Shown piece by piece: positions 1,872-50,586 of a stretch of DNA of 64,000 bases; within the stretch, counting starts at the first letter, position 1; each line of letters opens with the position of its first letter. Source of the stretch: an uncultured Desulfospira sp. (GTDB lineage Bacteria > Desulfobacterota > Desulfobacteria > Desulfobacterales > Desulfobacteraceae); assembly GCA_963663165.1 (NCBI GenBank), contig OY760175.1, forward strand, positions 4,128,001 to 4,192,000, written 5' to 3'. The notes below the pieces were generated by a model. The model was not told the DNA's origin. It was given only the letters and a program-made list of their open reading frames with translations, and made no database searches. The position numbers were made by a program, and so were the translations under genes.

Positions 1872-3002
1872 ATGGAATCTGTTTTTATGTCATGTGCTGA
1901 TCAAAATCGTTCTACTGGTCATTATCGTATTCTTTTTATTGGAACCTTTTTTATAACAATACTGTTTGCAATAACTCCCCAAACGATGGCGGCAATATGG
2001 TTGAAAGGCAAAACGGCTCCTGTCGTTTCCGGCAATTCTTATTATGGCTATTCGATTGATATAGACGGTAACTATGCAATTGTTGGAGCTTATTTACACG
2101 ATGTGGACTATGGCGGTCCCTCATTGTCAGATGTTGGCAGAGTATGGATTTTAGAAAAGACAAATGGGGCATGGACTGACTCAAATTACCTTGAACTTGA
2201 AAGAGATGATCCCGGCAATGAGTACGATGAGTTCGGAAGATCCGTTGCAATTAGCGGCAATTATGCCGTTGTCGGTGCTCCGGGTCAAAGAAGTGGTTCT
2301 ATCCAAGGTACAGGGGCTATTTATGTATTTTATAAAAATGGAGATTCATGGGATGAAATGCAACAAATTAGAGCATTCACTACTAAGGAAGATGCACAAT
2401 TTGGCCATACTGTTGATATCTATGAAAACTATCTAATTGTCGGAACTCCCCACAAACATACGGTCCACTTTTATGAATTAGTAGGAGACTCTTGGACACT
2501 TAAAGATGCAAGAACTGTATCTGGTATTTTTGGTACCTCCGTTGCTATAAGTAACGGCTACGCAATTGTTGGCGACCCCAGCGATGATACTCATGGAGAC
2601 TATGCCGGAGCCGCCTACATATTTAAGAGAAATGATTCAACCGGACGATGGGCCCAACAAACACCTCTTTTATACCCCAATGGTGATTGGAGTCCACAGA
2701 CATATGATCGATTTGGCATATCTGTTTCAATAGACGGGGATTATGCCATTATAGGTGCTAATCCACCGGATAAAATTGGTGATGAATACTTGTTGCTTCA
2801 GGGCAGCGCATATATTTTCAAAAGAGATGACAATGAAACATGGACACAGCACAGTACATACCTTTATGACGAAGAGGATAGTGATCCGGGGGGAAATAAT
2901 TTTGGCGGTTCCGTATCTATCAACGGTCGTTATGCCGTGGTCGGGGCTTCAGGAGACAATGAGCAGGGAACAAATGCCGGAGCCGCTTTTTTTTTTATAT
3001 GA
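1872..3002 (+). pseudogene. FG-GAP repeat (beta-propeller) secreted protein, N-terminal part, interrupted by IS110
   Basis: Hydrophobic N-terminus; repeated FGxSVAISGxYAVVGA / GAAYIF motifs; ORF stops at the IS junction. Confidence 0.85.
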
Positions 3003-3008
3003 AACACT

Positions 3009-3363
3009 ACCCCGTAAAAAGGGAATAGAATTCCGTTGGTTTATGGGTTTGCCCCAAAACATTTTGATTAGCGTTACAATTTTTTAATATCCAATCGATA
3101 ATATTTCCCGTTTGGTTAATATCTCAAGCACAGAAGATAGTTTCTTAAATCATCAGTAGTGGTCAGTTTACTTAAATAAGTTTTATATACGTAGTTCCCC
3201 TGGTGGGGACTAACAGTTCGTTGTGCAAAAAACCGACCAGTCATGTTATATTCGCGCTCTAAGGCTTCATTTCAACATCCGACTTTTTATTACTGAGTCA
3301 ATAATCAATTTATCTGTTGTACGCCTCTAAACAATATCGGTACAAAACATGTTGCTAAGTTAT
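3009..3363. ncRNA. Candidate bridge/seek RNA region of IS110
   Basis: Long non-coding end with hairpins (TAGTTCCCC/GGGGACTA, ~3192-3212) and segments matching the element ends (TTTTATAT, TTCGTTGTG, GTTATAT); family knowledge. Confidence 0.5.
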
Positions 3364-4623
3364 TCAGCTTTCACACGGTACAAGTTTCATTCCTAATTCA
3401 TCCGCCTTTCTTGCCAAATTCTTCAACATTCTTTGCTTATTGGGTTTGCTTAAATAGTCCTCGCCAAGGTCTTTATAAATGTCCCCGTTTTTGATGATGC
3501 TGTAAATAGCTTTTGCTATCCTGTGGGCTATGGCAACAATCGCTTTTCTGGCACCCCGCCTTGACTTCAGCTTATAATATTTGGCCTTGTAGTACGAGCC
3601 CTTCTTTTTAATTGCAGCCCATGCAGCCTGCACTAAAATCGTTTTGAATGGATGATTTCGAACCGCGTTCCGGCCGCTTTTCCTTTTACCCGCGCTTTCA
3701 TTGTTTCCCGGGCACAATCCGGCCCATGCAACAAAAGCAGACATGCTTTCAAACTCATTCAATGTGACCCCGACTTCTCCAAGAATGGATTGCGCTGACT
3801 TTTTATCGATCCCGGGAACTTCATCTAACCTTTTCAGTAAATTTTCATAGTCGAGGGTAAGTAATTCCAATCTATCATCAATTTGTTCAATCTGTTTTTG
3901 AAACATCTCAATGGCCTCCATCATGCCAATCAGTTGGAATCGATGATGATCTTTAAAATATCCATGGAGGCTTAAATATAATTCAGGAATTTTCTTTTTA
4001 AGCCCTCCTTTTGTGCATTCCTGGACCTTTTCCAAAGTCACTTCACCGTTTTTGCATAACAAATCAATGAGATTCAAACCGGTAAGCCCGAACAAATCAG
4101 AAACAACAGAATCAATTTTAATATTTGCCGTGATAAATAATTTATGAACACGTCGCTTATAATCAGCCAGAGATTCTGTATATGTTTTTCGTAATCGGCT
4201 TAACTCACGCCATTCACGAACATGTTCAGGGGGAATAAAACTACCTTTTACCAACCCATGACGAAGCAGTCCTGCAAGCCATTTACTGTCACAGATGTCT
4301 GTTTTTCTGCCTGGAACATTTTTAATATGCCTGGCATTCACCAAAACAACCTCCATCGTACCTTCAATGGTGTTATAAACCGGATGCCAATATACCCCGG
4401 TACTTTCCATTGCCACTACAGGACAGCTGTTTTCAATCAACCACATTTTCATTTTTTGCAAATCTTGAGTAAATGATGAAAATTCTCGAATCTTATGCTG
4501 TTCTTTCCCATTACCATCAACAGTGATTAAACAGGCTGAAATTTTGTCTTTGTGAACATCCAAACCACAACAAATTGGGTGAACAATTTGGATTAATGTG
4601 CTATTTTTTGATCCCTTGGTCAT
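3364..4623 (-). CDS. IS110 family transposase/recombinase
   Basis: GLDVHK, MESTG, KTDxxD (DEDD RuvC-like) and GLCPGNNESAGK (Tnp domain serine). Confidence 0.95.
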   Translation of the reverse strand: MTKGSKNSTLIQIVHPICCGLDVHKDKISACLITVDGNGKEQHKIREFSSFTQDLQKMKMWLIENSCPVVAMESTGVYWHPVYNTIEGTMEVVLVNARHIKNVPGRKTDICDSKWLAGLLRHGLVKGSFIPPEHVREWRELSRLRKTYTESLADYKRRVHKLFITANIKIDSVVSDLFGLTGLNLIDLLCKNGEVTLEKVQECTKGGLKKKIPELYLSLHGYFKDHHRFQLIGMMEAIEMFQKQIEQIDDRLELLTLDYENLLKRLDEVPGIDKKSAQSILGEVGVTLNEFESMSAFVAWAGLCPGNNESAGKRKSGRNAVRNHPFKTILVQAAWAAIKKKGSYYKAKYYKLKSRRGARKAIVAIAHRIAKAIYSIIKNGDIYKDLGEDYLSKPNKQRMLKNLARKADELGMKLVPCES

Positions 4624-4731
4624 AGCTATCTCCTTATATTTTTCTTGGTCGAAAAAAAAATTGATAGCTATGACCTTTTTTCAAAATTTGCAAGTGTTTC
4701 ATGCTTCGTTGTGTCCGCTAGGACATGGGGG

Positions 4732-5634
4732 TTATATGAAATAACCGAAAATGGGTGGCAATTCAAAGAAAAATTTGTGCTTTCAAACGACGCCCCACAA
4801 AGTTTTATGGGGATTTCAGTTGCAACGGATAAAGGCAATGTTTTAATAGGGGCACCTGACTATGGTGACAAAGTCGGAGCCGTTGTATCCTTTTCATTTG
4901 ACTTTGATGATGATTTTGATGTTGATGGATTGGACTTAAATGCGTTCATTACAAAATCACCCACCATTAAGCCGTTACCGGATGGATATATTACCCATCT
5001 TCAGCTTTTACCGGAGTTTTTCGGGCATAACCTGGAAACGATTGAACAGACGGCATCCGTTCTTCAAGCAAGTGAAAGTATAAGTTTGGCAGCCAGTATA
5101 ATGAGCGATAATATTGCTGCCTCAATCACCCAGGAATCCCAGGACGACGAAATTTTGATTGAAGATTTTAGTATCAAAGAGGTAAGCTGGGCTTCCTCCA
5201 ATGGTCAAGCCGGATTCGCAACCGGTGAATGGGAATGGCAAATTGACGAGATTCACCTTGATTCCGGCACGAATGTTATAAATTTATTTGTTACGGATGC
5301 TTTTGGCAACACTGCAGAAAAAGAAATTCAAGTGGTTTATAATGAAATTTTAACGGAAGACGGAACAAGACTACAGGAACAATGGGCCCGCAGATTAACC
5401 TACGAATTCAACTTTGATGAGACGGATACTGAGAACACACTAAGAACGGCGGCAGATATAACCATCTGGCTCTGGCCGGATAAGATCATTATGACTGATG
5501 ATTATTTAAACCCTGTTAATGTTGATAGTGACCGGATCACCATAGAGGAAGGGGTTCAATATCACTGGGGCATGGAGTGTGATGATTCCAATAAAAATAT
5601 TCTTTACCTGGATCTTCCTTCTGATGAACGGTAA
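4732..5634 (+). pseudogene. C-terminal part of the FG-GAP protein (last repeat, dockerin/EF-hand-like DFDDDFDVDGLD, Ig-like segment)
   Basis: LYEITENGW continues the GAAF... repeat interrupted at ~2995. Confidence 0.75.
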
Positions 5635-5765
5635 TGATATGACAATTTTTAGAATTGCCATCCGTTATACAATGTGTATAGATTAAAAGTCCGAATGTAA
5701 TTTTATAGAAACCTGATTTTTATGGATTCAGGATATACATTCATGATTGAAACAGAAAAATATTT

Positions 5766-5887
5766 GCCCAACAAAACGCTCCAACCGATCCGGGGGCCTT
5801 TCGACTTTTCGAAAGTCCTTGATTTGCAGATGGGGTTGGCTTTTACAACGTACTCGGCAAATTTTCCCCCGGTCGACTGAACACCCC
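5766..5887 (+). other. Degenerate attC site (R' GTT missing)
   Basis: GCCCAAC-AAAACGCTCCAACCGATCCGGGGG...CCCCCGGTCGACTGAACACCCC; clearly similar to the attC at 58213-58328. Confidence 0.7.
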
Positions 5888-5892
5888 AATAT

Positions 5893-6444
5893 ATGGAAAA
5901 CCCCAACTCCAAAACCTTTGTTTTCTGCCCCTCATGCGGCCACAAAGCGCTTTTTCCCCGGTCCCTGAAATCTTTTCAATGCCGGGAATGCGGATTTTTA
6001 TTCTACATAAACTGCGCTGCGGCCGCCATGGCCCTGATTTTTGATGACCAGGGCAGGCTGTTGATTACTTACAGAAAAAGAGAGCCTGCCAAGGGAAAGG
6101 GGGATCTTCCCGGCGGGTTCATTGAGCCTGGTGAAACCGTTGAGCAGGGGCTTGCCCGGGAAATCAAAGAAGAGCTGAACCTGGATGTCCTGTCTCTTGA
6201 ATACCTGTGTTCCGCCGCCAATTTCTATCCTTACGCTTCCGTGACATATCCCATCACCGACATGGCGTTTATCTGTAAGACCAACGGGTTTGACCATATG
6301 TCGGCCAATGACGACATCACCGGATATGAATTTGTGGATCTGCCCAGCTTTGACCTGAACACCTTTGGCATGGCATCCCCTAAACGGGTGGTGGAATTCT
6401 ACTGCCGAAAGTTCCTGAAACCGGATTCGGATCTTAGCGGCTAA
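5893..6444 (+). CDS. NUDIX hydrolase with N-terminal zinc ribbon
   Basis: CPSC/CREC and GGFIEPGETVEQGLAREIKEEL Nudix box. Confidence 0.9.
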   Translation: MENPNSKTFVFCPSCGHKALFPRSLKSFQCRECGFLFYINCAAAAMALIFDDQGRLLITYRKREPAKGKGDLPGGFIEPGETVEQGLAREIKEELNLDVLSLEYLCSAANFYPYASVTYPITDMAFICKTNGFDHMSANDDITGYEFVDLPSFDLNTFGMASPKRVVEFYCRKFLKPDSDLSG

Positions 6445-6471
6445 CAGCTAAAAGCTAATGGCTAACGGCTA
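6440..6471 (+). repeat. 7-bp tandem repeat (GCTAAnn)
   Basis: gctaaca gctaaaa gctaatg gctaacg gcta. Confidence 0.8.
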
Positions 6472-6491
6472 TTATAAAACAGGACATTATA

Positions 6492-7871
6492 ATGACAACA
6501 CACCCCATCATTCAGACCGTTCTCAATCAGCAAACGTACTTTAATTCTCTGGCCACCCGGTCTTATGATTTCAGGGTCAGGCAGCTTCAGACGCTTAAGC
6601 AGGGAATTTTAAAATTTGAAGCTGAATTTACCCGGGCGTTGAAACAGGATCTGGGCAAGCCTGAGTTTGAGTCCTATGCCTCGGAGATCGGGTTCAGCCT
6701 TCATGAGATCGGCTTTACCATCAAACATTTGAAGAAGTGGATGCGGCCCAGACGGGTGAAAACCCCCTTGCTCTGCCAGCCGGCATCCAGCCGGATCCAC
6801 TACACCCCCTTAGGGGTCAACCTGATCATTGCCCCGTTCAATTATCCGGTGGGCCTGACCCTCGGGCCTTTGACCGCCGCCATTGCCGCCGGCAATACAG
6901 CGGTCCTGAAAACCTCCGAGTTGACCCCTCATTGCAGTGCCGTGATCCGGAAGATGATTGAAGACGGCTTTGATCCGGCATATATCGCCTATATCCCGGG
7001 GGAAATTCCTGAAACCACCCTGTTGCTGGAACAAAAATTCGATCATATCTTTTTTACGGGCAGTCCCAGGGTCGGGGCCATTGTCATGCAGGCCGCCGCA
7101 AAAACCCTGACCCCGGTCACCCTGGAGCTTGGGGGAAAGAGCCCGTGCATTGTCCATTCAGACGCCCGGCTGAATATCGCTGCCAACCGGATCGTATACG
7201 GCAAATTTTTTAACACGGGCCAGACCTGCATTGCCCCGGATTATGTGCTGGTCCATGAAACCGTGGCCAAGGATTTCCTTAAGGCCTTAACCCACCGGAT
7301 TACCCGTCTTTACGGCAAAGATCCCCTGTCCTGCCCCGACTACGGCCGGATCGTCAATCAAGGCCATTTTAAACGGATCATGGCCCTTATTAACCCCGAC
7401 AAAATCGTTGTCGGGGGGCAGCATGACGAAAAAGAGCGGTTTATCGCCCCGACGGTGATGGCCAATGTCACCCTGGATGACAAGGTCATGGCAGAAGAAA
7501 TTTTCGGTCCGGTGCTGCCGGTGTTAACCTATACCCGGTTTGACGACATTTATAATATCATTGGAAAACTTCCCAGCCATCCATTGGCCTGTTATCTGTT
7601 CAGTGAAAGCAAAAAGGTGCAGGAAGAAGTGATGTCCCGTATCCCGTTCGGCGGCGGATCCATCAACCACTGCCTTCAGCATTTTATCAACCCGCACCTG
7701 CCGTTCGGCGGTATCGGGGAAAGCGGCATGGGCAGTTATCATGGGGTTGAGGGGTTTGAACGGTTTTCGCATAAAAAGAGCATTCTTAAAGCAGGCTCAA
7801 TAATCGACCTGCCCCTTGGGTATCCCCCGTACAAGAAAAAGCTGGGGCTTTTAAAACGGTTCATGAGATGA
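6492..7871 (+). CDS. Aldehyde dehydrogenase (ALDH3-like)
   Basis: PFNYP, FTGS, LELGGKSP, GQTCIAPD, EEIFGP. Confidence 0.95.
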   Translation: MTTHPIIQTVLNQQTYFNSLATRSYDFRVRQLQTLKQGILKFEAEFTRALKQDLGKPEFESYASEIGFSLHEIGFTIKHLKKWMRPRRVKTPLLCQPASSRIHYTPLGVNLIIAPFNYPVGLTLGPLTAAIAAGNTAVLKTSELTPHCSAVIRKMIEDGFDPAYIAYIPGEIPETTLLLEQKFDHIFFTGSPRVGAIVMQAAAKTLTPVTLELGGKSPCIVHSDARLNIAANRIVYGKFFNTGQTCIAPDYVLVHETVAKDFLKALTHRITRLYGKDPLSCPDYGRIVNQGHFKRIMALINPDKIVVGGQHDEKERFIAPTVMANVTLDDKVMAEEIFGPVLPVLTYTRFDDIYNIIGKLPSHPLACYLFSESKKVQEEVMSRIPFGGGSINHCLQHFINPHLPFGGIGESGMGSYHGVEGFERFSHKKSILKAGSIIDLPLGYPPYKKKLGLLKRFMR

Positions 7872-7943
7872 GACCATGCTGATCGCATACAACTTGGCTA
7901 TAGGTGGGGTCAATATTGATAATGAGGATAATAATGTATAAAA

Positions 7944-8028
7944 TGGGGACTTGGGATATGGGATATGGGACTTGGGTAGGCCGTGGATACTGCAATCCCC
8001 AGGTCCCATATCCCAAGTCCCAAGTCCA
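7944..8028. repeat. Inverted pair of 7-bp tandem arrays (TGGGAnn / nnTCCCA)
   Basis: gggacttgggatatgggatatgggacttggg ... cccaggtcccatatcccaagtcccaagtcc. Confidence 0.8.
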
Positions 8029-8105
8029 ATTTTTTGGAGATGATCCTTATTTCCCATTCCGGAATGGATTGCTTTTTTACATAACGATTGCCCTGGAGAT
8101 GAGGC

Positions 8106-8144
8106 GAAAAAAACGGCGGCAAAGAAAGGCTTCTTTGCCGCCGT
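8106..8144 (-). terminator. Intrinsic terminator
   Basis: 14-bp stem ACGGCGGCAAAGAA/TTCTTTGCCGCCGT with a T tail on the minus strand, after gene 8174-9247. Confidence 0.75.
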
Positions 8145-8173
8145 GAAATGACAACAGGGGTTACAAGAATTGT

Positions 8174-9247
8174 TTATTGCCAGTATTTTTGAAGGTACTT
8201 TCTTTCCAGAAGAATAATGGACTGTTCATCCACCTGCCCGCTGTTGACCTTGAATTTGATCAGGTCGTCCCGGTAAGGAATTTTTCTCGGGCTTGAAAAC
8301 TGGAAGGTCTGGCTCCTGTCCTTGGTAATGATGACGTAGTTATAGGTTTGATTGCCGCTGTCGTAAACCCGCTGGGTCATTACCCCCTCAAAGGACCCCT
8401 GGCCGGCCATGGCGGCCTGGCCGCCCTGGACTCCGAGCTGTCCGCCGGTCCCGAGCCCGCCCTGTACCGTCTGGGCCTTGTATGATTTAACCGCCCGGAT
8501 CAGATTGTTCATGGAGTCGGTGAAGGCCGCTACAATAACCTTGCCTTCCGGGGTTCTTGAATAAGCCCCCACCGCACCGCCGGCACTGTGGCCGAACATG
8601 CCGCCCAAAAGGTTAAAGTCAGTGTTCCGGGCGCTGCCTTCAGCTGCGGCCAGCTGAACACCGGAACGGTTTTCGATCAGGGTGATCATGGTGCTGGCAT
8701 CGCTGGTCTTGAATCCGCCGGCAACGGCGCCGGCAACGGAGCCAAGCAGCCCCCCCACCACGGCACCGGCCCCGCCGGTATCGTTTGAGCTGAAGGTAAT
8801 GCTGGGGGTGGCCGTATAATCGGCGGCAACGATCTGTCCTTTACCGAAGTTAGACCCGCTGCGCATTTCCCCTGACTGCATCAGCTGACGTTCCTGCATC
8901 ATCTGGTTCATGGCCTTTCCACGCTCGACCACCACAAAACAGTTGGACTGCTGGGCCAGAAGCCGGATAACCGGAATCGTTGACGGCAGTCTTAAGTCGC
9001 TGGTCAAATGCTGATACCAGGATTCCGACTGATCCTCATAAATGGCCAGGGTCCCCAGTGAGGCATCGCAATGCTCCAAGCCGGCATTGGCATTCTGGGC
9101 ATTGGCCCCCCCGGCAGAACCGGTGGCCGTGGTCTTTGCCGACTGTGACCCGGTCTGCATGGAGGACATACACCCGGAAACGAACAACAGGGTTAAAACA
9201 CAACATAGCGCTATTCCGTATCCAGATATTTTTCTAGTCATTTTCAT
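8174..9247 (-). CDS. CsgG/HfaB-family lipoprotein
   Basis: Lipobox VSGC; QQSNCFVVVERG motif. Confidence 0.8.
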   Translation of the reverse strand: MKMTRKISGYGIALCCVLTLLFVSGCMSSMQTGSQSAKTTATGSAGGANAQNANAGLEHCDASLGTLAIYEDQSESWYQHLTSDLRLPSTIPVIRLLAQQSNCFVVVERGKAMNQMMQERQLMQSGEMRSGSNFGKGQIVAADYTATPSITFSSNDTGGAGAVVGGLLGSVAGAVAGGFKTSDASTMITLIENRSGVQLAAAEGSARNTDFNLLGGMFGHSAGGAVGAYSRTPEGKVIVAAFTDSMNNLIRAVKSYKAQTVQGGLGTGGQLGVQGGQAAMAGQGSFEGVMTQRVYDSGNQTYNYVIITKDRSQTFQFSSPRKIPYRDDLIKFKVNSGQVDEQSIILLERKYLQKYWQ

Positions 9248-9285
9248 CTCCTTTTTTCTCCCTTTATTGAAAATGCCGTTAAATT

Positions 9286-9385
9286 TTATATGAAAGCCTC
9301 ACTAACATATTGAAAAGACCTCCATTACTCGTTGTGGGCGGTGCCTGGTTGGATAACCAAGGCGGCCCGTGGCCGTTTTATGAAA
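9286..9385 (+). repeat. Mini-element (IS110-like ends)
   Basis: TTATATGAAA...CAT-TACTCGTTGTGGGC...GGCCGTT; homologous to copies at 41.3 and 50.4 kb. Confidence 0.85.
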
Positions 9386-9579
9386 CTTGGGGCCAAATTC
9401 GGGGCGAAAGTTTCGATACTTTGTTATGGACAAAGCGGGTTCTAAAATCCAGTCCGTCCGGGACGGGTATTCATAATCATTAAGCGAACAAATTATTTTA
9501 GGATAGAGATTTCCTTTTTGTCAAGCAGATGATCAAAATTGTCAAAATCCTTTATTCTGCGCGGCAGCAGAAAGGGGGG

Positions 9580-10713: not shown

Positions 10714-11025
10714 AAATTATACCCCCCTTGACCCTTAGGATGATGGTGTTCAGTGCCCGTTTTATCGCTATACCTGTCAGGGGTCAATACATCGGGGCAT
10801 AACCTGAAGATTCGCAGCATCGGGTCTCCTGCGGTTAAATTATTAAATTTATACATAAAAACATATGGTTAAATATTGGATCGGTTAGATGAATGGGGCC
10901 CGGCGAGCCAAAATTTCAAAACTTGACCAGACGCCGCCATTTCTGTATATACAGTGTTTTTTTAGGCTCTTGCATGAAATGGGAAAAGGTCTTGTTTTCA
11001 TCCCGAACCTAAACAGACAGGAGGG

Positions 11026-11937: not shown

Positions 11938-11942
11938 GCCGT

Positions 11943-12869: not shown

Positions 12870-12878
12870 CGGGGCACC

Positions 12879-14494: not shown

Positions 14495-14498
14495 TCAG

Positions 14499-28476: not shown

Positions 28477-28478
28477 AT

Positions 28479-30210: not shown

Positions 30211-31335
30211 ATGACCGAGTATGATTATTGGAAAATTTTTCCCAGAATGCCGAAAAAAGTGACGATTGGAGACATCACCATCAGAGACGGTTTCCAGCAC
30301 CTGGAAAAGTTTATTTCCACTCAGGCCAAAATCACCTATCTTGAAGAGCTGATCTTTGCCGGCTGCCGAAATATTGAGGTGACCAATCTGGGCAATCCCC
30401 GGAACATGCCCCAGTTCTCCGATGCAGAAGAACTGCTGGCCCATTTACGGTCGGATAATTTTGTATCCAGGGCTGCCAAAAAGGGCATAGACATGAAAGA
30501 CGTGGTCTTAACGGCCATCACCATCCGGGAGCCTTCCGTGGACCGGGCCATTAGGCTAAAGGAACGGGGCGTGGGCCCGGACCGGGTTCTCATGATGGTT
30601 TCCACAGAGGAACAGCACCATTTTGCCAACTCCGGCACTACCCTGCCCAACTACTGGGCCGAGGCTGAGCGGTGCATTAAAAAATGCACGGATGCGGGCA
30701 TTAAAATGTGCGGCACCGTATCCACCATCTGGGGCAGCCCCATTGGCGGCGCCACCGACCTTAAGGATGCGGTTGAATTCACCAAATACTGGCTGTCCAT
30801 CGGGGCGTCGGACATTGAGCATGCCGACCATGACGGGTCTGCATCCGCGGCCCAGGTATACCGGTACTTTTCCATGATTCTGGACGAGATTCCGGATACC
30901 AGCCTTCACATTGCCCACTTTCATGAAACCAAACGGGTGGCCTCCGCATCGGTACTGGCCGCACTCCAGGCCGGGATCTGCCACTTTGAAGCCACCCTGG
31001 GCGGCCTGGGCGGGCAGCCGGCCAATTTTATTGATGACCGGCCCATCAAGGGCACCGGGGACTACTACTATGACGATGAACGTTACGTGGGCCTGGTTTG
31101 CCTGGAAGACACCCTTGTACAAATTGATGAAATGGGTATAGAACATGGATACGATGTCGACCGGATCCTCTGGATAGGCAAGCAATTGGAAAAAACCGTG
31201 GGCGCCCGCCTGAGAAGTGAAGCCGTGATTAACGGCAGAACCCTTAAGGAAGGGCATATGGAATATGCCAGGCCCGGGCTTGCCAAGCTCAAGGAAAAGC
31301 TTGGAGAAGAACCAAACCAGAGTTTTCCCAAATAA
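30211..31335 (+). CDS. HMG-CoA lyase-like DRE-TIM metallolyase
   Basis: IRDGFQ, HFH, GGLGG; leucine catabolism context. Confidence 0.75.
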   Translation: MTEYDYWKIFPRMPKKVTIGDITIRDGFQHLEKFISTQAKITYLEELIFAGCRNIEVTNLGNPRNMPQFSDAEELLAHLRSDNFVSRAAKKGIDMKDVVLTAITIREPSVDRAIRLKERGVGPDRVLMMVSTEEQHHFANSGTTLPNYWAEAERCIKKCTDAGIKMCGTVSTIWGSPIGGATDLKDAVEFTKYWLSIGASDIEHADHDGSASAAQVYRYFSMILDEIPDTSLHIAHFHETKRVASASVLAALQAGICHFEATLGGLGGQPANFIDDRPIKGTGDYYYDDERYVGLVCLEDTLVQIDEMGIEHGYDVDRILWIGKQLEKTVGARLRSEAVINGRTLKEGHMEYARPGLAKLKEKLGEEPNQSFPK

Positions 31336-31466
31336 CTGCCAGCCCCGGTAAGGCAGAAATCGGGCCGGCCTGTTCTCTTTAATCCTGGGCCGGCCCACGA
31401 CAAATATTGAAAGCTAACAGCCAACACCTAATGGCTAACGGCTAACAGCTAATAGCTAACAGCCAA
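31333..31466. repeat. Degenerate mini-element half followed by GCTAAnn heptamer array
   Basis: ggcagaaatcgggccg...cccacgacaaatattgaaag, then about eight heptamers. Confidence 0.65.
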
Positions 31467-38048: not shown

Positions 38049-38086
38049 TTTGAACATATACCAAAGGGATGGGGCATACATTCAGC

Positions 38087-38118: not shown

Positions 38119-38145
38119 GTTTGCGCTTTCGGGTGTGGCCAAAGA

Positions 38146-40001: not shown

Positions 40002-40098
40002 GCGAAGACCTTTTGAACCTTAAGCCCGGGCCTGAAGCAGGCACCTTATAACCCGGCAAGGATGCCCGCCCAAAGCCGGCAAAAGACAAATTATAGGG

Positions 40099-41250: not shown

Positions 41251-41304
41251 GGTGTTCCTCCAGTTTTAAAATTTTAAAAAAGGTTCATGACACGGTATTT
41301 AAAT

Positions 41305-41525
41305 AACGGTCATACCCTTAAAGGGCAGAAACGGACCGTCTTTGATTATCCAGCCAGGCACCGCCCACAACGAATAATGAAAGCCTTCTCAGGATGTTTT
41401 ATATGAAAGAATCTGCAAGCTGCTGTAATTCTTTCATGCTTTGTTGTGGGCCGAACCGGATTAACAATCCAATCGGCCCGGTTTCTGCCCTTTAGGGTAT
41501 GGCCGTTAGTGAGCCTTTCATATAA
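41305..41525. repeat. Two nested mini-elements (outer on minus, inner 41399-41507 on plus)
   Basis: Outer loop GGATGTT|AGTGAG (intact in the 50.46 kb copy) is split by TTATATGAAA...GGCCGTT. Confidence 0.85.
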
Positions 41526-41622
41526 AAATTAATGGGATGTTAGCGCCCTGTTTCCTCCTTTTCCCCCGGCCTTTTCTTAAATCAAAAGGGTAAAAACAAT
41601 TCAAATAATGAAAAATAAGCTA

Positions 41623-41832
41623 TGGTATTACCAATATCTATTTTGAGAAAATAATTTTGTCAAGAGAAAAATTAATTGAATTGATTTTTTTACTTGTATC
41701 TGTTATTTCAAACAAAGCGTTGCATTTCAGGCAGCCTAAAACCCGATAAATAGCGCTTTGGTAAATGGTATGACCATGGTATTTATTGCAAGTCGCCTTG
41801 TGAAAAAGCAATAATAAAATTTGGTATGACCA
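41623..41832. promoter_or_regulatory. Three FadR/GntR-type operators TGGT-N3-ACCA
   Basis: 41623-41633, 41766-41776, 41822-41832 in the divergent region; FadR gene nearby. Confidence 0.75.
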
Positions 41833-41855
41833 TATTCCATGAAGGGAGGCAATTG

Positions 41856-43247
41856 ATGAATTCAGCACTGAAAAAAGAATTAATCCAAATCCTGGGGGCA
41901 GACAACCTGATGACGGATATGGAGGACAGGATGAGTTACGCGTATGATGCGGCCGTGCTGGAGCCCCAAACCCCCATGGCCGTTGCCATGCCCCGGAACA
42001 CAGAAGCCGTGGGCAAGGTTATCCGGTTATGCCATGAAAACGGCATTCCCCTGACGGTCAGGGGGGCCGGCACCAATCTTAGTGGCGGAACCATCCCCGA
42101 CCCCGGCGGGATTGTCCTGCTCACCAACCGGTTTAACCGGATTCTTGAAATCAATGAACAGGACATGTACGCCGTGGTCCAGCCCGGCGTGGTCACCGCA
42201 ACCCTGGCAGCAGCCGTGGAAAGCAAGGGGCTGTTCTATCCTCCGGACCCGGGCAGTCAGGCCGTCTCCACGCTGGGAGGCAATGTGGCGGAAAACGCCG
42301 GCGGGCTTCGGGGGTTGAAATACGGGGTAACCAAAGATTATGTCATGGGCCTTGATTTTTTTGATGCCCAGGGCGGGTATATAAAGACCGGGTCAAAAAC
42401 CGTGAAATGTGCTACCGGATATAATATTACCGGCCTGATGGTGGGGTCGGAAGGAACCCTTGGCGTGCTAGACACCATTATCTTAAAGCTGATCCCCTAT
42501 CCCAAAGCCAGGAAATCCATGATTGCCGTATATGACGCCATAGAAACCGCATCCGAGGTGGTGTCGGCCATTATTGCCGCAAGAATTGTTCCCGCCACCC
42601 TGGAAATCCTGGACAACTTTACCATCCGGGCCATTGAAGACTATACCAAAGCCGGCCTGCCCGTGGATGCGGCTGCCCTGCTGCTCATTGAAGTGGACGG
42701 CCATCCCGCTGAGGTGGCCGAAGAGGCCGGGCAGGTGGAAACCCTGTGCAAAGAATATGGGGCTACGGATATTAAAACAGCCAGGACCGATGAAGAACGC
42801 GACAAGGTCTGGTCGGCCCGCAGGGCGGCGTTGTCTGCCCTGGCCAAACTAAGGCCCACCCTTGTCCTGGAAGACGCCACCGTGCCCAGAAGCCGGATTC
42901 CGGAAATGGTCAAGGCCCTTCAGCAGATCGGAAAAGACTTTAACCTGAGCATTGGCACGTTTGGCCATGCCGGGGACGGCAACCTTCATCCCACCATTCT
43001 GACCGACCGCCGGGACAAAAAAGAGTGGGAAAGGGTCGAGGCCGCCATTGAACAAATTTTTGACAAGGCCCTGGCCATGGGCGGCACCCTTTCCGGCGAA
43101 CACGGCACCGGGATCGCCAAAGCCCCGTTTCTGGAAAAGGAGGCCGGGGCCTCGACCATACTATTCTCGCAAAGGCTTCGAAAGGCCCTGGACCCCAAAG
43201 GCATCCTTAACCCGGGCAAAATCACAGGAGTGCCCCGTCATGGATAA
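41856..43247 (+). CDS. glcD: FAD-linked glycolate/D-lactate dehydrogenase subunit (GlcD family)
   Basis: PPDPGS, GSEGTLG, GHAGDGNLHP, SGEHG. Confidence 0.85.
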   Translation: MNSALKKELIQILGADNLMTDMEDRMSYAYDAAVLEPQTPMAVAMPRNTEAVGKVIRLCHENGIPLTVRGAGTNLSGGTIPDPGGIVLLTNRFNRILEINEQDMYAVVQPGVVTATLAAAVESKGLFYPPDPGSQAVSTLGGNVAENAGGLRGLKYGVTKDYVMGLDFFDAQGGYIKTGSKTVKCATGYNITGLMVGSEGTLGVLDTIILKLIPYPKARKSMIAVYDAIETASEVVSAIIAARIVPATLEILDNFTIRAIEDYTKAGLPVDAAALLLIEVDGHPAEVAEEAGQVETLCKEYGATDIKTARTDEERDKVWSARRAALSALAKLRPTLVLEDATVPRSRIPEMVKALQQIGKDFNLSIGTFGHAGDGNLHPTILTDRRDKKEWERVEAAIEQIFDKALAMGGTLSGEHGTGIAKAPFLEKEAGASTILFSQRLRKALDPKGILNPGKITGVPRHG

Positions 43248-44568
43248 AATCAGCGCCCTGGCCGTACGGGTGAAAGAACTGGAAGACCAGCTTGCGGTAT
43301 GCATGCGTTGCGGCATGTGCCAGGCCGTCTGCCCCCTGTTTGAACAGACCGGGCGGGAAACGGATGTGGCCAGGGGCAAACTGGCCCTGCTCTCAGGATT
43401 GATGTCCCGGATGTTTGATGATCCCAGGGGGGTGGCGGACCGGCTCAACAAATGCCTGTTGTGCGGCGCCTGTGCCGCCAATTGTCCATCCGGCGTGAAT
43501 GTGCTTGATATTTTTATCCGCGCCCGGGCCATTCTGACTGAATATGCCGGGCTTTCGGCCCCTAAAAAACTGGTTTTAAGGCAGGTGCTTTCAAATCCGG
43601 AACGGTTTAACACGGTGGTGGGTCTGGCTGAAAAGTTCCAGGGGATGATGGTGAAAAGCCGGGAGTCCGTCCAGGGCACCTCTTGTGCCCGGTTTGGTTC
43701 GCCATTGCTGTCCGGCCGCCATTTTCTGCCCCTGGCCAAAAACCCTTTTCACCGCTGCCGGACTGCCCCGGTTTCGGCAAAAGGCCATTCAGGCCCCAGG
43801 GTGGTGTTGTTTACCGGCTGTCTGATCGACAAGCTCATGCCCGACATCGGCCATGCCGTGGTAAAGGTTATGGCCCATCACAGGGTCAACCTTCTGGTTC
43901 CTGAGACCCAGGGCTGCTGCGGCATACCGGCCCTTGCCTCAGGGGATCGAAAAACCTTTGACACCCTGGTCAGCCACCATATCCGCCTGTTCAAAAAGCA
44001 GCCGTTTGACTATCTGATCACGGCCTGCGCTACCTGCACGTCTACGGTGAAAAAACTATGGCCGTCAGTTTTTAAAGGCGCGGCCAATGAAAATGAATAT
44101 ATCAAAGAACTTTGTGCCAAAACAATGGATGTTAACCAGTTTCTCGTGGATGTGATAAAGGTGCCGGTACCGGACATGCCCGGGGAAGGAAAGGAGGCGG
44201 TCACCTACCACGATCCCTGCCACCTGAAGAAATCTTTGGGAATCTTTGCCCAGCCCAGAACCCTGATAAGGGCTGCCGGCCATCCGTTAAAAGAGATGGC
44301 GGCTCCGGATAAATGCTGCGGCATGGGCGGAAGTTTCAATCTTTTCCACTATGAAATTTCCATGAAAATCGGATCCATCAAGCGACAGAACATTGTTGAC
44401 ACCGGGTGCCCTACGGTTGCTTCGGGCTGTCCGGCCTGCATCATGCAGATCAGCGACATGCTTTCAAGAAAAAAGGACGATATAAAGGTTGTCCATCCGG
44501 TTCAATTGTATGCCCGGCACCTGGATAATGATGATCCGGCCGCCCGCGGACAACAGAAAAAGGCTTGA
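43240..44568 (+). CDS. glcF: Fe-S/CCG subunit (GlcF family)
   Basis: Two CxxCxxCxxxCP, two CCG domains, YHDPCH. Confidence 0.8.
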   Translation: MDKISALAVRVKELEDQLAVCMRCGMCQAVCPLFEQTGRETDVARGKLALLSGLMSRMFDDPRGVADRLNKCLLCGACAANCPSGVNVLDIFIRARAILTEYAGLSAPKKLVLRQVLSNPERFNTVVGLAEKFQGMMVKSRESVQGTSCARFGSPLLSGRHFLPLAKNPFHRCRTAPVSAKGHSGPRVVLFTGCLIDKLMPDIGHAVVKVMAHHRVNLLVPETQGCCGIPALASGDRKTFDTLVSHHIRLFKKQPFDYLITACATCTSTVKKLWPSVFKGAANENEYIKELCAKTMDVNQFLVDVIKVPVPDMPGEGKEAVTYHDPCHLKKSLGIFAQPRTLIRAAGHPLKEMAAPDKCCGMGGSFNLFHYEISMKIGSIKRQNIVDTGCPTVASGCPACIMQISDMLSRKKDDIKVVHPVQLYARHLDNDDPAARGQQKKA

Positions 44569-44652
44569 TATTCGAAAATTTTTAATCAATATTAGATCAT
44601 CAAACATAAAAATACCCCAAGTATTAACAGCCAACAGCCAGATGAACCAAAC

Positions 44653-45363
44653 ATGACCATACCCATTAAACCCATTCAACCCCAACGGATCTCAGACCAG
44701 GTTTTTGAACAGATAAGGGAACTGATTTTCAGGGGAAAACTCAAGCCCGGCGAAAAGCTGATGACCGAACGGGAACTGGCCCAGGCCATGAACGTTAGCC
44801 GGACAGCCATCAGAGATGCGGTCCAGCGCCTTTCCGCCATGGGGCTCATTGTCCGCAAACAGGGCCAGGGCACCTTTGTCAAATCCTATGACCCTGAGCC
44901 GACCAATCCCCTGGTCAAGGCCATGGAAGAGCAGAACGCCACCCTGAACCATCTTCTGGAAGTCCGGATGGGGCTTGAGTGCAATGCCGCATCCATGGCG
45001 GCTCGGCGTGCTGATGAATCCGATATCAACTCCATGAACCAGAGCATGGAAGAGATGCGCCGGGAAATCGCCTCGGGCCGCCTGGGAACCCAGGCCGACA
45101 CCGCCTTTCACATGGCCATTGCCTATGCGGCAAAAAATCCCCTTCATATCCTGATCATGCGCAATTTTTACGATTACCTGACCCACAATATTCGGGAAAA
45201 CCTGGAATCCCTTTACCAGGAAGCTGAAAACACCAGAATTATCCTGAATCAGCACCAGAATATTCTTACCGCCATTATGGCCAGGGACGGGGATTCGGCA
45301 CTGGAGGCCATGAAAACCCATATCCGGTTTGTTATGGATTTTTTCAAGGAAAAATCAACCTGA
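44653..45363 (+). CDS. FadR/GntR regulator
   Basis: ERELA...VSR...RDA...QGQGTFV plus FCD domain. Confidence 0.9.
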   Translation: MTIPIKPIQPQRISDQVFEQIRELIFRGKLKPGEKLMTERELAQAMNVSRTAIRDAVQRLSAMGLIVRKQGQGTFVKSYDPEPTNPLVKAMEEQNATLNHLLEVRMGLECNAASMAARRADESDINSMNQSMEEMRREIASGRLGTQADTAFHMAIAYAAKNPLHILIMRNFYDYLTHNIRENLESLYQEAENTRIILNQHQNILTAIMARDGDSALEAMKTHIRFVMDFFKEKST

Positions 45364-45522
45364 ACAGTTAGGGCCCCTGGTTTTTGCCTATTTTTCAGCA
45401 TTAGCTGAATAGTTAATATGTGCCTTTTGGTGTAACGCAGGATACGGACAAAAAGGCAAGCAAGATGGGGGAGTTATTTCTTTCCGAACCCCTTACCCTG
45501 AACCAAAAGTAAAGGAGCGGGC

Positions 45523-46707
45523 ATGCGTTATCTTGTCCTCCTGTCAGCCGTTGTTATGCAGATCTGCCTGGGTGCCACCTACTCCTGGAGTGTTTATGTC
45601 CAGCCCCTTAAAACATTGACCGGCCTTGCCCAGGGGCCGGTCCAGCTCCCGTTTAGCCTGTTTTATTTTGCTTTTCCGGCGACCATGATGATTGCCGGCC
45701 ATTTTCTGCCCCGCATGGGGCCAAGAAAAAGCGCGGTGGCCGGAGGGCTTCTTTTCGGGGGAGGATGGCTGGTGGCCGGCCTGGGAAGCAAAAGTTTCTG
45801 GTTCACCGTTCTGGGCATCGGCGGCCTGGCCGGCATGGGCGCGGGCATGGCCTATATCGTTCCCATTGCCGTATGCATCAGCTGGTTTCCCAAAAGCAAG
45901 GGACTGGTGACCGGGATTGCCGTGGCCGGTTTCGGCGGCGGTGCCGCCCTGGTCAGCCAGGTGGGCGGCCACCTTATTTCCGGGATGGGCATGACGCCTT
46001 TTCAGACATTTTTTATATTTGGCGGCCTGTTTTCCGTATTGATTTCCCTTTCCGGATCATTGATGCATTTCCCGCCGGGAAAATTAAGCGGCAAAAACCG
46101 GCCTGCCAGGACATTAAAACCGGGGCAAGTGGTGCGGCATCCTGATTTTTACATGCTTTATGCGTCCATGTTCATGGGGCTTGCGGCCGGATTTGCCGTA
46201 AACGCCAATCTAAAAGAACTGTACCAGGGCGCTGGAAATGGTGTCAGCATAGGGGTGACGGCTGTGTCTGTATTTGCCCTGGCCAATGCGGCCGGCCGGG
46301 TGATCTGGGGCGCGGTTTTTGACCGGATCAGCGCTTCGGCAGCCATTCAGGCCAACCTGATCAGCCAGGCCCTTGTCTTGGCAGTGTCCCCGTTTCTTGC
46401 CACCACTGCTTTGGGGTTCTGGGCACTGGCCTTTATTGCCGGGTTCAATTACGGCGGGGTTCTGGTAATTTATGTATCCTCCGCTTCAAGGGCCTGGGGT
46501 GCGGCCCATATCGGCCAGGTCTACGGCTGGCTTTTTACCAGCAACATCCCGGCCTCTTTATCGCCTATTCTGGCCGGGCTGTTCTATGACCGGTTCCATA
46601 CTTTTAACGGATTTCTTTTTATTTTGTCCGGCCTGCTGATTGCTGCCGCAGGCATGGTCCACGCCCGGCCTGAACCCGTTAACCGGTCGGCTAATTCCGA
46701 AAACTGA
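45523..46707 (+). CDS. OFA-family MFS transporter
   Basis: GATYSWSV and WFPxxKGLVTG. Confidence 0.88.
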   Translation: MRYLVLLSAVVMQICLGATYSWSVYVQPLKTLTGLAQGPVQLPFSLFYFAFPATMMIAGHFLPRMGPRKSAVAGGLLFGGGWLVAGLGSKSFWFTVLGIGGLAGMGAGMAYIVPIAVCISWFPKSKGLVTGIAVAGFGGGAALVSQVGGHLISGMGMTPFQTFFIFGGLFSVLISLSGSLMHFPPGKLSGKNRPARTLKPGQVVRHPDFYMLYASMFMGLAAGFAVNANLKELYQGAGNGVSIGVTAVSVFALANAAGRVIWGAVFDRISASAAIQANLISQALVLAVSPFLATTALGFWALAFIAGFNYGGVLVIYVSSASRAWGAAHIGQVYGWLFTSNIPASLSPILAGLFYDRFHTFNGFLFILSGLLIAAAGMVHARPEPVNRSANSEN

Positions 46708-48553
46708 TTTCTATATGATATGCCCCCCCATCCAGGTTCGCCTCCATGGGCAGCCCGAGTTTTTCAAACACCTTGATCATGGGGTAATTATCCGGCATCA
46801 CCTCTGCGGTAATTCCCTTGAATCGCTGTTTTTTACCGAAATCCACCAGCAGTTTGAGCATGAATGAGCCAATGCCGATGCCCTGATATGCCTGGTCAAT
46901 GAGAAAGGCCACCTCTCCGGAATAGGTTCGTTCATCCCGGATCAACCGGGCTTCGGCAACAATCTGGTTCTGCTCTTCACTGGTGTCCACCATGCCGACG
47001 ATGGAGACTTCCCTGCTGTAATCCACGTTCACATACTTTTGCATTTTATCGTGGGCCATGGTCTTAATGGCGTAAAAGAACCGGTAGTAAATGGCCTCTT
47101 TGGAGCACCGGTAAAAAAAGCGGCGCATGGCCTCTTCGTCCGATGGCTTGATCCCCCTAAACCGGATTTCCTTTCCCCCTTTGAAGGTCTGGGTGCAGTC
47201 CAGGTAGGAGGGGTAATACCGTGCTGAATTGGGGATAAAAATCTGGTCGGGATAGATCAGCTGCTGTTCCTTTGCTTTTTCAACCAGCTCCTCCCGGTCG
47301 TCGGGATGGGCAATGTCGATGATGGCCTGGGCCCGCTCCCTTAAGGTTTTCCATTTCAGGTTGGCCACGCCGTATTCGGTGGCGATCATGTGAACCGATT
47401 CTTTTAAGCGGAGCTGGTTGGCATAGTTTTGAACGCTTAACAGAATATTGGGCTCCCCTTTTTCATTTCTGGAGGGAAGGCCGATAATGGTGGCCCCGTC
47501 TGCGGATGCCTCGGCCCCCTTGTAAAAGTCAATTCCCTCTCCAGGGCCGGTGATCACCGCCCCTTTCAGGGGGAAGGCCGCGCCCCCGAGAAGGTCCACC
47601 TTTCTGACCTCGTAGATGGCGACAAACTGGGGGTTCTGGGCAATGAGCTGGGAGTTGCACACCCAGTTGATTCCCTGGAATTCCACCAGGGGATTCCGGT
47701 TCAGCCACTTCATAAGGCGCTTGGTCCCAAGGGCATAGGATGCAAGACTTTTTCCCCGGAAAGGGGATTTGAACCGGTTGGTCACGGCCCCGGAATTGAC
47801 CAGCTCGGCCAGGGCATCGGTAAAATAAAGGGAATGAACCCCCAGGTCCTTTTTGTCGCTAAGGTGGGGGACCAGGGCTTCAAACAAGGAGCCAAGGCCG
47901 TAATTGATGCAGTCTCCGTCTTTGATCACCGACGCCACATTGGCGGCCACCTGGTTCATCAGCTCGGAAACCGTGGGCGGTGCATAGGTGACCGGCTCGT
48001 GCTCAGACCGGACCAGAAGGTCAAAATCTTCAATAGAAACAAGGGTATCGCCATAGGTAAAGGGGATATCGCGGCTGACCTCCCCCACCACCAGAGATGC
48101 CTGTTCCATAACCTCCCTTGCCACGTCCACGGCCCCGCCAAGGCTGCAATACCCGGCGTCATCCGGCGGTGTGATCTGGATAAACGCCACGTCAATCTTG
48201 ATTTTTTTGGCCTTGATGATCTTGGGAATCTCCGAATAATAGGCCGGAATCAAGTCCACCTGGCCCGATGCGATGGTGTCCCAGGCCACATAACCGGAAA
48301 AAAATGTCTTTAACCGGTAATTGGGCGCATTGAGCCGGTCCACGGAAAGGATGGTCTCTCCCTGGACGGCCAGCTGCACCAGTTCGAGATCCCGTATGTT
48401 ATGGGAATCCACATCCAGAAGGCTACGAAGCAGGGTCCGGGGTGCTGCCGGACCGCTGCCGATAAAAACGGTCATGCCCGGGTTTATATGATTTAAAACC
48501 TTTTCAGGCGGGACCATGTTCTCTTCCCAGTTGGACACATCGAATTCTGGCAT
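46691..48553 (-). CDS. Acetyl-CoA hydrolase/transferase-GNAT fusion
   Basis: ATEYGVANL...ERAQAIIDIAHPDDR and C-terminal YQGIGIG. Confidence 0.85.
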   Translation of the reverse strand: MPEFDVSNWEENMVPPEKVLNHINPGMTVFIGSGPAAPRTLLRSLLDVDSHNIRDLELVQLAVQGETILSVDRLNAPNYRLKTFFSGYVAWDTIASGQVDLIPAYYSEIPKIIKAKKIKIDVAFIQITPPDDAGYCSLGGAVDVAREVMEQASLVVGEVSRDIPFTYGDTLVSIEDFDLLVRSEHEPVTYAPPTVSELMNQVAANVASVIKDGDCINYGLGSLFEALVPHLSDKKDLGVHSLYFTDALAELVNSGAVTNRFKSPFRGKSLASYALGTKRLMKWLNRNPLVEFQGINWVCNSQLIAQNPQFVAIYEVRKVDLLGGAAFPLKGAVITGPGEGIDFYKGAEASADGATIIGLPSRNEKGEPNILLSVQNYANQLRLKESVHMIATEYGVANLKWKTLRERAQAIIDIAHPDDREELVEKAKEQQLIYPDQIFIPNSARYYPSYLDCTQTFKGGKEIRFRGIKPSDEEAMRRFFYRCSKEAIYYRFFYAIKTMAHDKMQKYVNVDYSREVSIVGMVDTSEEQNQIVAEARLIRDERTYSGEVAFLIDQAYQGIGIGSFMLKLLVDFGKKQRFKGITAEVMPDNYPMIKVFEKLGLPMEANLDGGAYHIEISFRN

Positions 48554-48856
48554 GGTTGGCTCCTTGGATCAGATTGTTGCGGGAAAATGCACGGATTGTC
48601 TATGCCATATTTATATCAGCAATAAAACGGTTTCGCAAGAAACCGGAAAAAATATGATTTTTTTGTAAAATAGTTCATTTTTTTTCTAAAGCTTTATATA
48701 TTGGCGATATTGGCAGGGCGAAAATGAAATGGACTTTTGCCAGCAAAAAGGTTAGGTTATGGTAATTAAATTTCAATTATAGTATTTCATGATATCACAT
48801 CCATTTTATGATTAAATTCGATTCAGCTGCTTTTTTTCCGAAAAAAGGGGACGTTA

Positions 48857-50302
48857 ATGCTTAAAGAACGCCGTTCATTTACCGTTAACTGCCAGAGGTT
48901 TGTTGATCTGGGAATAACCGGATCTTCTTTTCTGTTGGCCTATGGAATTAAAAAATTCCTTTTATCCGGTGAATATAAAGGGTTGTCCACAGAACCCAAC
49001 TATTATTTGATTCTGCTTCTGGCCATGCTGTCCTGGCACATTTCCCTGAACTGGATGGGAATGTATGGCCTGTACTTTCGCAAGAACCATTTCCGGCAGT
49101 ATTTTACCACCATTTTAAAATCCTGCTGCCTGGGGATTTTTTTGTTGAGCCTGGCCATGTACGCCATGCATATCCAGGAGGTCAGCCGTGTCCTGATCTC
49201 CATATTTTTCTTTTTAAATATTTTTTTTCTGGCCGTGACCAAATATGCGGCCCAGAAAATATTAAAAAAGGTCAGGGCCCGGAGGTTTAATACTAAAAAC
49301 GTCATCATCGTCGGCAGTGGGAACCGGGCAAAGGAGGTCATTGCGGCCGTAAAAAATCAGGATGATACACGGTTCACGATTTCAGCCTGTTTTGAGGTGG
49401 ACAGTGAAAGACTGGGCCAACCCATAGCCGAGGGGTACCGGGTGACCGGCCTGGTCAAGGACCTTGAAGACTATATGCAGACCCATGTGGTGGATGAACT
49501 GATTTTTGCCACACAGCTAAAAGGGGTGAAAGACGGGGACCGGTATATCGAACTTGCAGAAACACTGGGAATAAAGGTCCGGATTGTGCCGGACTGGGAA
49601 CTGCACCACCTGAAATACTACCCCAACCTGGCCCGGGTGGCATTCGGGGAGTTTTTGGGCATTTACAACATGACCCTCCAGTTCACCCCGCCAAATGAGG
49701 GAGAGCTGCTGCTGAAAAGCGCCTTTGATCTGGTTGTGGCCACCCTTTTGACCATTCTCTTGAGCCCGCTGCTCCTCGGGATTGCCATTGCCATTAAATT
49801 TTTTTCCCAGGGGCCGGCGCTTTACACCCAGGAGCGCCTGGGCCAGTATGGTAGAACATTTATGGTTTATAAATTCAGAACCATGGTGGAAGGGGCCGAC
49901 GAACTTTTAAAAGAACTGGCGGAAATGAATGAAGCAGACGGGCCGGTCTTTAAAATCAAAAATGACCCGCGAATTATCCCCTGGGTGGGCACCTTTCTCA
50001 GGAAAACCAGCCTGGATGAGCTTCCCCAGCTGTTCAACGTGCTCAAAGGGGAAATGAGCCTTGTGGGCCCCCGGCCCCCTATCCCCAAAGAGGTGGATGA
50101 ATACTCCATCTGGCAGCGTCGGCGGCTTTCCATGAAGCCGGGCATGACCTGCCTGTGGCAGATCGCGCCCCACAGAAACGAGCTGAGCTTTGAAGACTGG
50201 ATCCAGCTGGACCTGCAATACATCGACACCTGGTCTATATTTAACGACATCTGGATCCTGGTGCTGACCGCCCGGGCGGTTCTTACTGGCGCCGGGCAAT
50301 AG
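48857..50302 (+). CDS. Polyprenyl-phosphate glycosylphosphotransferase (WcaJ-like)
   Basis: KFRTM, DPR, SLDELPQ, GEMSLVGPRP. Confidence 0.92.
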   Translation: MLKERRSFTVNCQRFVDLGITGSSFLLAYGIKKFLLSGEYKGLSTEPNYYLILLLAMLSWHISLNWMGMYGLYFRKNHFRQYFTTILKSCCLGIFLLSLAMYAMHIQEVSRVLISIFFFLNIFFLAVTKYAAQKILKKVRARRFNTKNVIIVGSGNRAKEVIAAVKNQDDTRFTISACFEVDSERLGQPIAEGYRVTGLVKDLEDYMQTHVVDELIFATQLKGVKDGDRYIELAETLGIKVRIVPDWELHHLKYYPNLARVAFGEFLGIYNMTLQFTPPNEGELLLKSAFDLVVATLLTILLSPLLLGIAIAIKFFSQGPALYTQERLGQYGRTFMVYKFRTMVEGADELLKELAEMNEADGPVFKIKNDPRIIPWVGTFLRKTSLDELPQLFNVLKGEMSLVGPRPPIPKEVDEYSIWQRRRLSMKPGMTCLWQIAPHRNELSFEDWIQLDLQYIDTWSIFNDIWILVLTARAVLTGAGQ

Positions 50303-50403
50303 CGGACAGAAAAGCCGCGTGTAACGGATCATATTTTTATAATCTAACCAAGGGGCACCAGGCTTGATCTTAGAGCCAAAACAAGACGTTCCTCGGCACG
50401 GTT

Positions 50404-50586
50404 ACTAACGGCCACGGGCCGCCTTGGTTATCCAGCCAAGAACCGCCCACAACGAATAATGAAAGTCTTATCAGGATGTTAGTGAGACTTTCATATAACG
50501 GCCACGGGCCGCCTTGGTTATCCAACCAAGAACTGCCCACAACAAATATTGAAAGCACTCAACAGGTTGCTGAGTCTTTCATATAA
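50404..50586 (-). repeat. Tandem pair of mini-elements (~88-bp period)
   Basis: TTTCATATAA at 50489-50498 and 50577-50586; internal IR ATGAAAGTCT/AGACTTTCAT. Confidence 0.9.

Follow-up and report, generated by a model that had tools for sequence, protein, structure and literature searches.

Miniature elements with the ends of a resident IS110 element as predicted substrates of its bridge recombinase, and a hairpin-split donor end

A 64,000-nt stretch of the genome of an uncultured Desulfospira sp. (GenBank assembly GCA_963663165.1, contig OY760175.1, positions 4,128,001 to 4,192,000; hereafter the window, in genome G000) carries an insertion sequence (IS) of the IS110 family together with several short repeats, here called minis, whose ends mirror those of the IS. 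The locus raises the question whether these repeats are themselves mobile elements served by an IS110 recombinase or host repeats beside which the IS lands. The analysis described here indicates that the minis are very probably selfish, gene-less, non-autonomous IS110 elements moved in trans by the recombinase and its bridge RNA, or by those of earlier relatives. That the donor in this process is a folded single strand appears reasonably probable, and mobilisation of the minis in trans with such a donor is likely the best overall explanation of what can be read directly from the sequence, namely the shared ends, the TT core, the empty sites, the tandem and nested insertions, and the covariation of guides and targets.

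The recombinase of the resident element combines the Pfam domains DEDD_Tnp_IS110 and Transposase_20, with the catalytic DEDD and serine residues in place. In G000, three of the three identical copies of this IS, as well as one end remnant, have an identical terminal segment although their insertion sites are unrelated, so that the segment is part of the IS; the end layout given in the original prediction was borne out by reading the sequence. Comparison of junctions identified the insertion core as the dinucleotide TT, without target duplication, although the left junction may hold an extra T; the 10-mer previously noted at both IS ends is present but is not a duplication, the crossover being the 2-nt core. 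In G001, a genome of the same genus, the insertion site is empty and the FG-GAP gene retains an intact frame of 465 codons; the uninterrupted allele is also found in sequencing runs X3 and X5, and, relative to the G001 allele, the left junction in the window contains three additional T. The element displays sub-terminal inverted repeats (10 bp, against 7-17 bp in the IS1111 group) and a non-coding region of about 370 nt downstream of the gene, as is typical of that group, but in place of terminal extensions of 6-7 bp and 3 bp it has extensions of 29 nt and 3 nt. A fourth IS110 gene in G000 (at 4.922 Mb) showed no BLAST match to the resident IS; no close relative that is named or solved was found, plasmid matches being below 40% identity and the PDB yielding only IS621 and ISCro4. 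The third IS110 copy contains, at the equivalent of window position 3178, a 1880-bp IS (G000:C1:4961842-4963721; about nine full copies in the genome) which, being placed within the predicted donor loop, probably disables the RNA of that copy. The 110-bp end remnant (G000:C1:4913733-4917579) is split by an element, taken here to resemble IS21, whose frames encode a transposase and a helper ATPase.

The genome-wide motif search, run as an nhmmer profile, yielded 318 mini hits in 264 clusters distributed across the entire chromosome, compared to none in the shuffled genome. Among the 282 right ends that could be parsed, some 200 are associated with interiors of 19-28 nt and 45 with interiors of 60-89 nt made from a host repeat; the remaining 32 lack a nearby left end, and some of these are false matches. 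The inner bases of the inverted repeats were claimed to vary while staying complementary, and across 82 distinct interiors this is the case for positions 1-4 (complementary in 70, 71, 59 and 67, respectively) but not for position 5 (8 interiors). [quoted passage not shown] The positions of the minis in the window were correctly predicted, except that the pair at 41305 and 41399 consists of a plus-strand copy nested inside a minus-strand copy and not of neighbours. The approximately 20 bp upstream of the single mini (window 9262-9281), which are absent from G001, look like a left end joined to a right end and are possibly a collapsed mini remnant. In a CRISPR-like array at G000:C1 ~388000-393000, the start of the repeat nearly matches the mini anchor, probably by coincidence.

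Mobility of the minis is indicated by empty sites, which were found both between G000 and G001 and among paralogs within G000. The comparison covered 70 loci out of the 276 strict mini matches in G001: 30 have no orthologous pair of flanks in G000, 13 are filled in both genomes and 27 are mini-less in G000, many of the latter with diverged junctions and five resolved to the base. At one of these five (L080), a 91-bp insertion is exact at TT between flanks that are 99.7-99.9% identical, and at another (L127), a 182-bp dimer is likewise inserted exactly at TT; the other three are near-exact, with one extra T at L126 and L057 and two at L121. The mini at L080 (G001:C1:679970) breaks an apparent open frame of the empty G000 allele and, on this comparison, is a recent gene disruption. 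Within G000, 13 of the 113 mini arrays match a contiguous empty paralog (one being a neighbouring tandem copy and another having a gap, with about half of the remainder showing one extra T). The arrays at G000:C1:3581527, 3600042 and 3651223 share a single insertion point in a host repeat that has about 50 empty copies.

Could the minis instead be host repeats of the repetitive extragenic palindromic (REP) type, disseminated by a RAYT or retained because they serve the host, and targeted or captured by the IS? Such an origin would fit the predominantly intergenic location of the minis (109 of the 113 clean arrays lie outside open reading frames [ORFs] of at least 150 codons) and their persistence in genomes without the IS, and IS1111 targets a MITE or REP in Coxiella. 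The REP or REPIN sequences of a RAYT lie on both sides of the Y1 transposase gene. Of the 14 Y1_Tnp hits, however, none is flanked by minis on both sides, and the three located within 1.6 kb of a mini have it on one side only. Moreover, the IS copies bring their own identical end and do not split a repeat, the ends of the minis are conserved while the interiors are unrelated, and the insertion register follows the guide of the IS. IS copies often abut minis, because the mini end is itself a target; of the alternative raised originally, REP-like repeats on which the IS lands, only the landing beside minis therefore stands, and an origin as host repeats is highly improbable. With empty sites, shared IS ends and no flanked RAYT gene, the original proposal that the minis are non-autonomous substrates of the IS110 recombinase is supported.

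Even less probable is that the minis are attC-like cassettes moved by an integron integrase. The attC sites employ a folded-strand logic similar to that discussed below, cassettes insert at G-TT in arrays beside the integrase, the right end of a mini reads G-TT and folds, and an integron integrase scoring above the cut-off is encoded 2.7 kb past the window (G000:C1:4194663-4195604). Nevertheless, C and T, and not only G, precede TT at the empty sites, and the minis are scattered over the chromosome, with ends that match the IS and its RNA. The window itself contains, at 51300-63900, an array that resembles an integron and includes toxin-antitoxin ORFs; of its five group II intron copies, several lack a complete reverse transcriptase frame. 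The attC-like ends of this array hold a TTTTGTTGTG block that resembles the mini anchor.

The link between the minis and IS110 extends beyond this genome. In a survey of 301 genomes of the order, the strict pattern of mini ends was detected in 19 genomes and the reversed pattern, used as a control, in none; a recombinase of at least 50% identity is encoded in 13 genomes, seven of which have both. All five of the 301 genomes with at least 20 strict minis are among these seven and encode a recombinase of at least 59% identity; Fisher tests overstate the association, since kin are not independent. The mini ends are kept between genomes whereas the interiors are unrelated, with unit lengths of 67-268 nt, and the minis of G013 terminate in near-copies of the IS end. 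Full IS copies are found within tandem trains of minis at L097 (G005; flanked on both sides), L178 (G107), L004 and L008, and such embedded copies are possible composite excision units. Host repeats serve as filler of some minis, including a GTAG-type palindrome in G252 (L155, L171), palindromes of 190-220 nt in G013 (L095, L099, L102) and heptamer runs in G107 (L145), so the minis may ferry other repeats.

Insertion of the minis appears to be directed by the predicted bridge RNA, the fold of which is conserved in relatives; its folding energy by itself is insignificant (z = -1.06), and a promoter scan gave only chance-level results. [quoted passage not shown] In 52 pairs, the 3' strand of the target loop matches the element's own target, with a longest shared word of 6.3 on average against 3.5 after permutation, even though the motif is mislocated in about ten rows, mostly from Paenibacillus, where the RNA matches by eye; for the 5' target guide, a match with the left flanks of the minis was not evident. 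In all five genomes that carry an IS, the register of insertion agrees with the target guide of that IS: A and TAT after the TT of the mini stand at 185:25 (G000) and 122:42 (G021) where the guide is ATAT, but at 105:296 (G005), 4:234 (G107) and 0:226 (G252) where it is TATA (all counts include tandem junctions and IS copies). The respective ratio in G001, which has no match to this recombinase, is 161:36. The mini arrays are explained by the element's own end being a match for the target guide; the shifted type predicted by the ATAT guide accounts for 49 of the 71 tandem junctions in G000. Growth of the T run (82:21 in genomes with the ATAT guide vs 47:37 in those with the TATA guide) is at most suggestive of a footprint of self-insertion. 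At 118 array ends, the bases that follow TT are most often ATA (37), AGT (34) or ATT (26); one mini subfamily has AGT in 10 of 10 cases, and some relatives carry guides for AGT or ATT. From the sequences, we infer that part of the mini family was moved by earlier IS110s that shared the donor guides but differed in their target guides.

At the donor end of the IS, the 29-nt stretch from the core to the inverted repeat is composed of 6 nt, a hairpin and 9 nt. Among 148 related loci, 66 could be parsed into this split layout, including some of only 36% identity. Positions 3-5 of the hairpin form Watson-Crick pairs in 80% of 66 distinct ends chosen by their flanking motifs, against 46% when arms are swapped; hairpin length varies between 13 and 38 nt, with swapped pairs, while the spacing on both flanks is fixed. 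Of the two strands of the donor loop, the 3' one matches the core-proximal end and the 5' one agrees in sense with the block past the hairpin. The first two variable positions are equal in 38 of 40 relatives, a result independent of the one-base bulge that was allowed post hoc for longer blocks; the two exceptions stem from mislocated motifs, which do match when read by eye. In these 40 pairs (after omission of six elements without an RNA and three mis-parsed ones, and correction of two by hand), the distal guide agrees with the post-hairpin block at a mean of 4.9 of six positions, compared to 3.4 after permutation (maximum 4.1 in 20,000), whereas the canonical opposite-strand reading, in which the guide is matched to the 6 nt beside the core, gives 1.75 of six. 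Thus, the predicted donor guides do not match opposite strands of a contiguous donor as is canonical for IS110. On a tree of 43 recombinases, which included no named IS1111 reference, the distal guide and donor assume six states with at least seven changes, and the near-identical sisters L257 and L265 differ in both.

Because both predicted donor guides match the same strand, one of them beyond the hairpin and in covariation with the block there, a folded single-stranded donor is suggested. Under the proposed mechanism, the plus strand of the window would be excised as a small circle; with its inverted repeats annealed and the terminal hairpin closed, a mini would consist of two hairpins and a bubble. 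The block TTYGTTGTG would then come to face the core, replacing the missing second strand, and both donor guides would pair with one folded strand, giving the usual geometry of left and right guides, before the circle is joined at TT into the target read by the target guide. Folding of whole units favours the plus strand in 132 of 152 minis, but these copies are kin. The principal alternative is that the minis depend on IS110 but that the donor is ordinary double-stranded DNA, with the hairpin and the distal block read as a local cruciform or serving protein binding, excision only or RNA-level control. We consider this rather unlikely, given that the distal guide shares its sense and covaries with the distal block and that the spacing is fixed on either side of a hairpin of variable length. 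Furthermore, double-stranded circles of 67-92 nt, the length of such units, would be very strained.

Several observations nonetheless weigh against the interpretation favoured here, that of trans-mobilised minis with a folded single-strand donor. With respect to the donor, mini orientation shows no replichore bias (79:77 and 89:73, with the origin uncertain and dnaA off the skew extremes) and the strand asymmetry of wobble pairs across lineages is weak (20 G-T vs 11 A-C), so that a cruciform in duplex DNA may be involved instead. A double-stranded donor is further favoured by the description of IS621 with a double-stranded circle (PMC13626964), by the roughly 20-fold preference of CazIS110-1 for double-stranded DNA at one junction (10.1101/2025.10.25.684509), and by the finding that a palindrome near the left end of ISPpu9 is dispensable for excision and minicircle formation (PMC12288879, in the accessible part of each source). 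With respect to the recombinase, 12 of the 19 mini-bearing genomes lack a close recombinase and six of the 13 recombinase-bearing genomes lack strict minis; in G001 (276 strict minis), G013 and G022, minis are present but no match to this recombinase was detected. The recombinases of G005, G107 and G252 form one clade, which reduces the register test to one or two independent contrasts. The AGT and ATT targets at 60 of the 118 array ends are incompletely matched by the resident guide; judging from these sites, the resident IS cannot account for every mini insertion, and the minis are partly older than it. The presence of an extra T varies among left junctions and has only a partial explanation. 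Finally, no excision, circle or RNA was observed; the circle joint is absent from the contigs, which drop rare forms, making this absence uninformative.

The kind of element represented by the minis is already known. MITEPpu9, the ssr9 module of ISPpu9 in Pseudomonas putida KT2440, is an IS110-dependent non-autonomous element for which minicircles have been shown, and, like the minis, it is gene-less, copies the IS110 ends, has a dinucleotide core, and occurs alone, in tandem and beside the IS; unlike them, it is described as present in eight copies, with a small RNA gene, a REP target and an IS110 of the group without sub-terminal repeats (PMC12288879). The minis, by contrast with what the available text reports for MITEPpu9, comprise hundreds of units of 67-270 nt with many independent interiors, sub-terminal repeats, a short target guide and a hairpin-split donor. 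IS621, the protein of which is weakly similar to the resident recombinase (E = 3.5e-9), shares the DEDD recombinase, the two-loop RNA and the 2-nt core (PMC11208160), but its donor is a contiguous duplex whose opposite strands are each paired with a guide; single-strand excision has been reported (10.64898/2026.08.31.748434), and the single-stranded circle is thought to become double-stranded before insertion (PMC11208160; PMC13626964; 10.64898/2026.08.31.748434, as far as these sources are accessible). The IS1111 group (ISEc11, ISKpn4, ISPa11) resembles the resident IS in the sub-terminal repeats, the long downstream non-coding region and the 3-nt right extension, whereas the left extension is 6-7 nt in that group and, in the resident IS, 29 nt with a hairpin (10.1101/2024.04.26.591405); relatives of the resident IS at 36-45% identity have the same end but, unlike the IS1111 group as described there, an upstream RNA. 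Strand-specific copy-out and integration of a single-stranded donor, as proposed here, are reported for CazIS110-1, although the accessible text does not mention a donor hairpin (10.1101/2025.10.25.684509). ISPpu10 has a DNA stem-loop that gates recombination, but there it lies in the target, and the donor guides are on opposite strands (10.64898/2026.03.19.712850, in the part available). Outside ISfinder, subscription papers, figures and bioRxiv supplements, the literature yielded no report of a donor hairpin read by same-strand guides. A recent survey, in its accessible part, reconstructed donors from 25-nt windows, which may miss the distal block. Hence, the hairpin-split donor with both predicted guides on one strand is apparently new. 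The features of the window are listed in Table 1.

Table 1. Coordinates of the IS110 element, its predicted RNA and the minis in the window
Feature	Position	Strand	Remarks
IS110-family element including both TT cores	2994..4733	-	Splits FG-GAP repeat gene
Sub-terminal inverted repeat, 3 nt inside core	2999..3008	+	
Core of predicted bridge RNA: target loop followed by donor loop, both internal and stem-closed	3161..3283	-	From fold; conserved in relatives
Proximal donor guide (predicted)	3180..3191	-	Pairs with core + TATAT at other IS end
Distal donor guide (predicted)	3216..3226	-	Complement of TTCGTTGTG at 4705-4713, past hairpin
Target guide (predicted)	3245..3253	-	Pairs with TT core + ATAT; covaries with insertion sites of relatives
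Bridge recombinase, 419 residues	3364..4623	-	D22, E73, D109, D112, S310 invariant across 13 relatives
Partner sub-terminal inverted repeat, 29 nt inside core	4693..4702	+	
Split donor end	4705..4733	+	Guide-matched block, 14-nt hairpin (4712-4725), 6-nt spacer, TT core
Single mini	9285..9377	+	At least 4 in tandem at same site in G001
Degenerate mini, right half only	31334..31413	-	
Mini interrupted by second mini	41305..41526	-	Uninterrupted in G001
Nested mini at TT-AGT site inside host mini	41398..41507	+	Absent from G001
Mini, second of tandem pair	50407..50498	-	G001 synteny breaks here
Mini, first of tandem pair	50497..50587	-	

[quoted passage not shown] It seems slightly better than an even prospect that a widespread clade of recombinases, reaching down to 36% identity and found in several phyla, uses a self-folded single-strand donor, in the manner of integrons with their folded attC sites, with both guides reading one strand and, in some lineages, a bulged base; that dumbbell circles of less than 100 nt transpose; and that insertion sites record successive IS110 visitors differing in their target guides. 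If so, the minis would be natural minimal donors by the hundred, and would define a donor of less than 100 nt that could potentially be supplied as a single synthetic oligonucleotide. The minis also show that large repeat families can be founded by IS110 elements and persist after these are gone.

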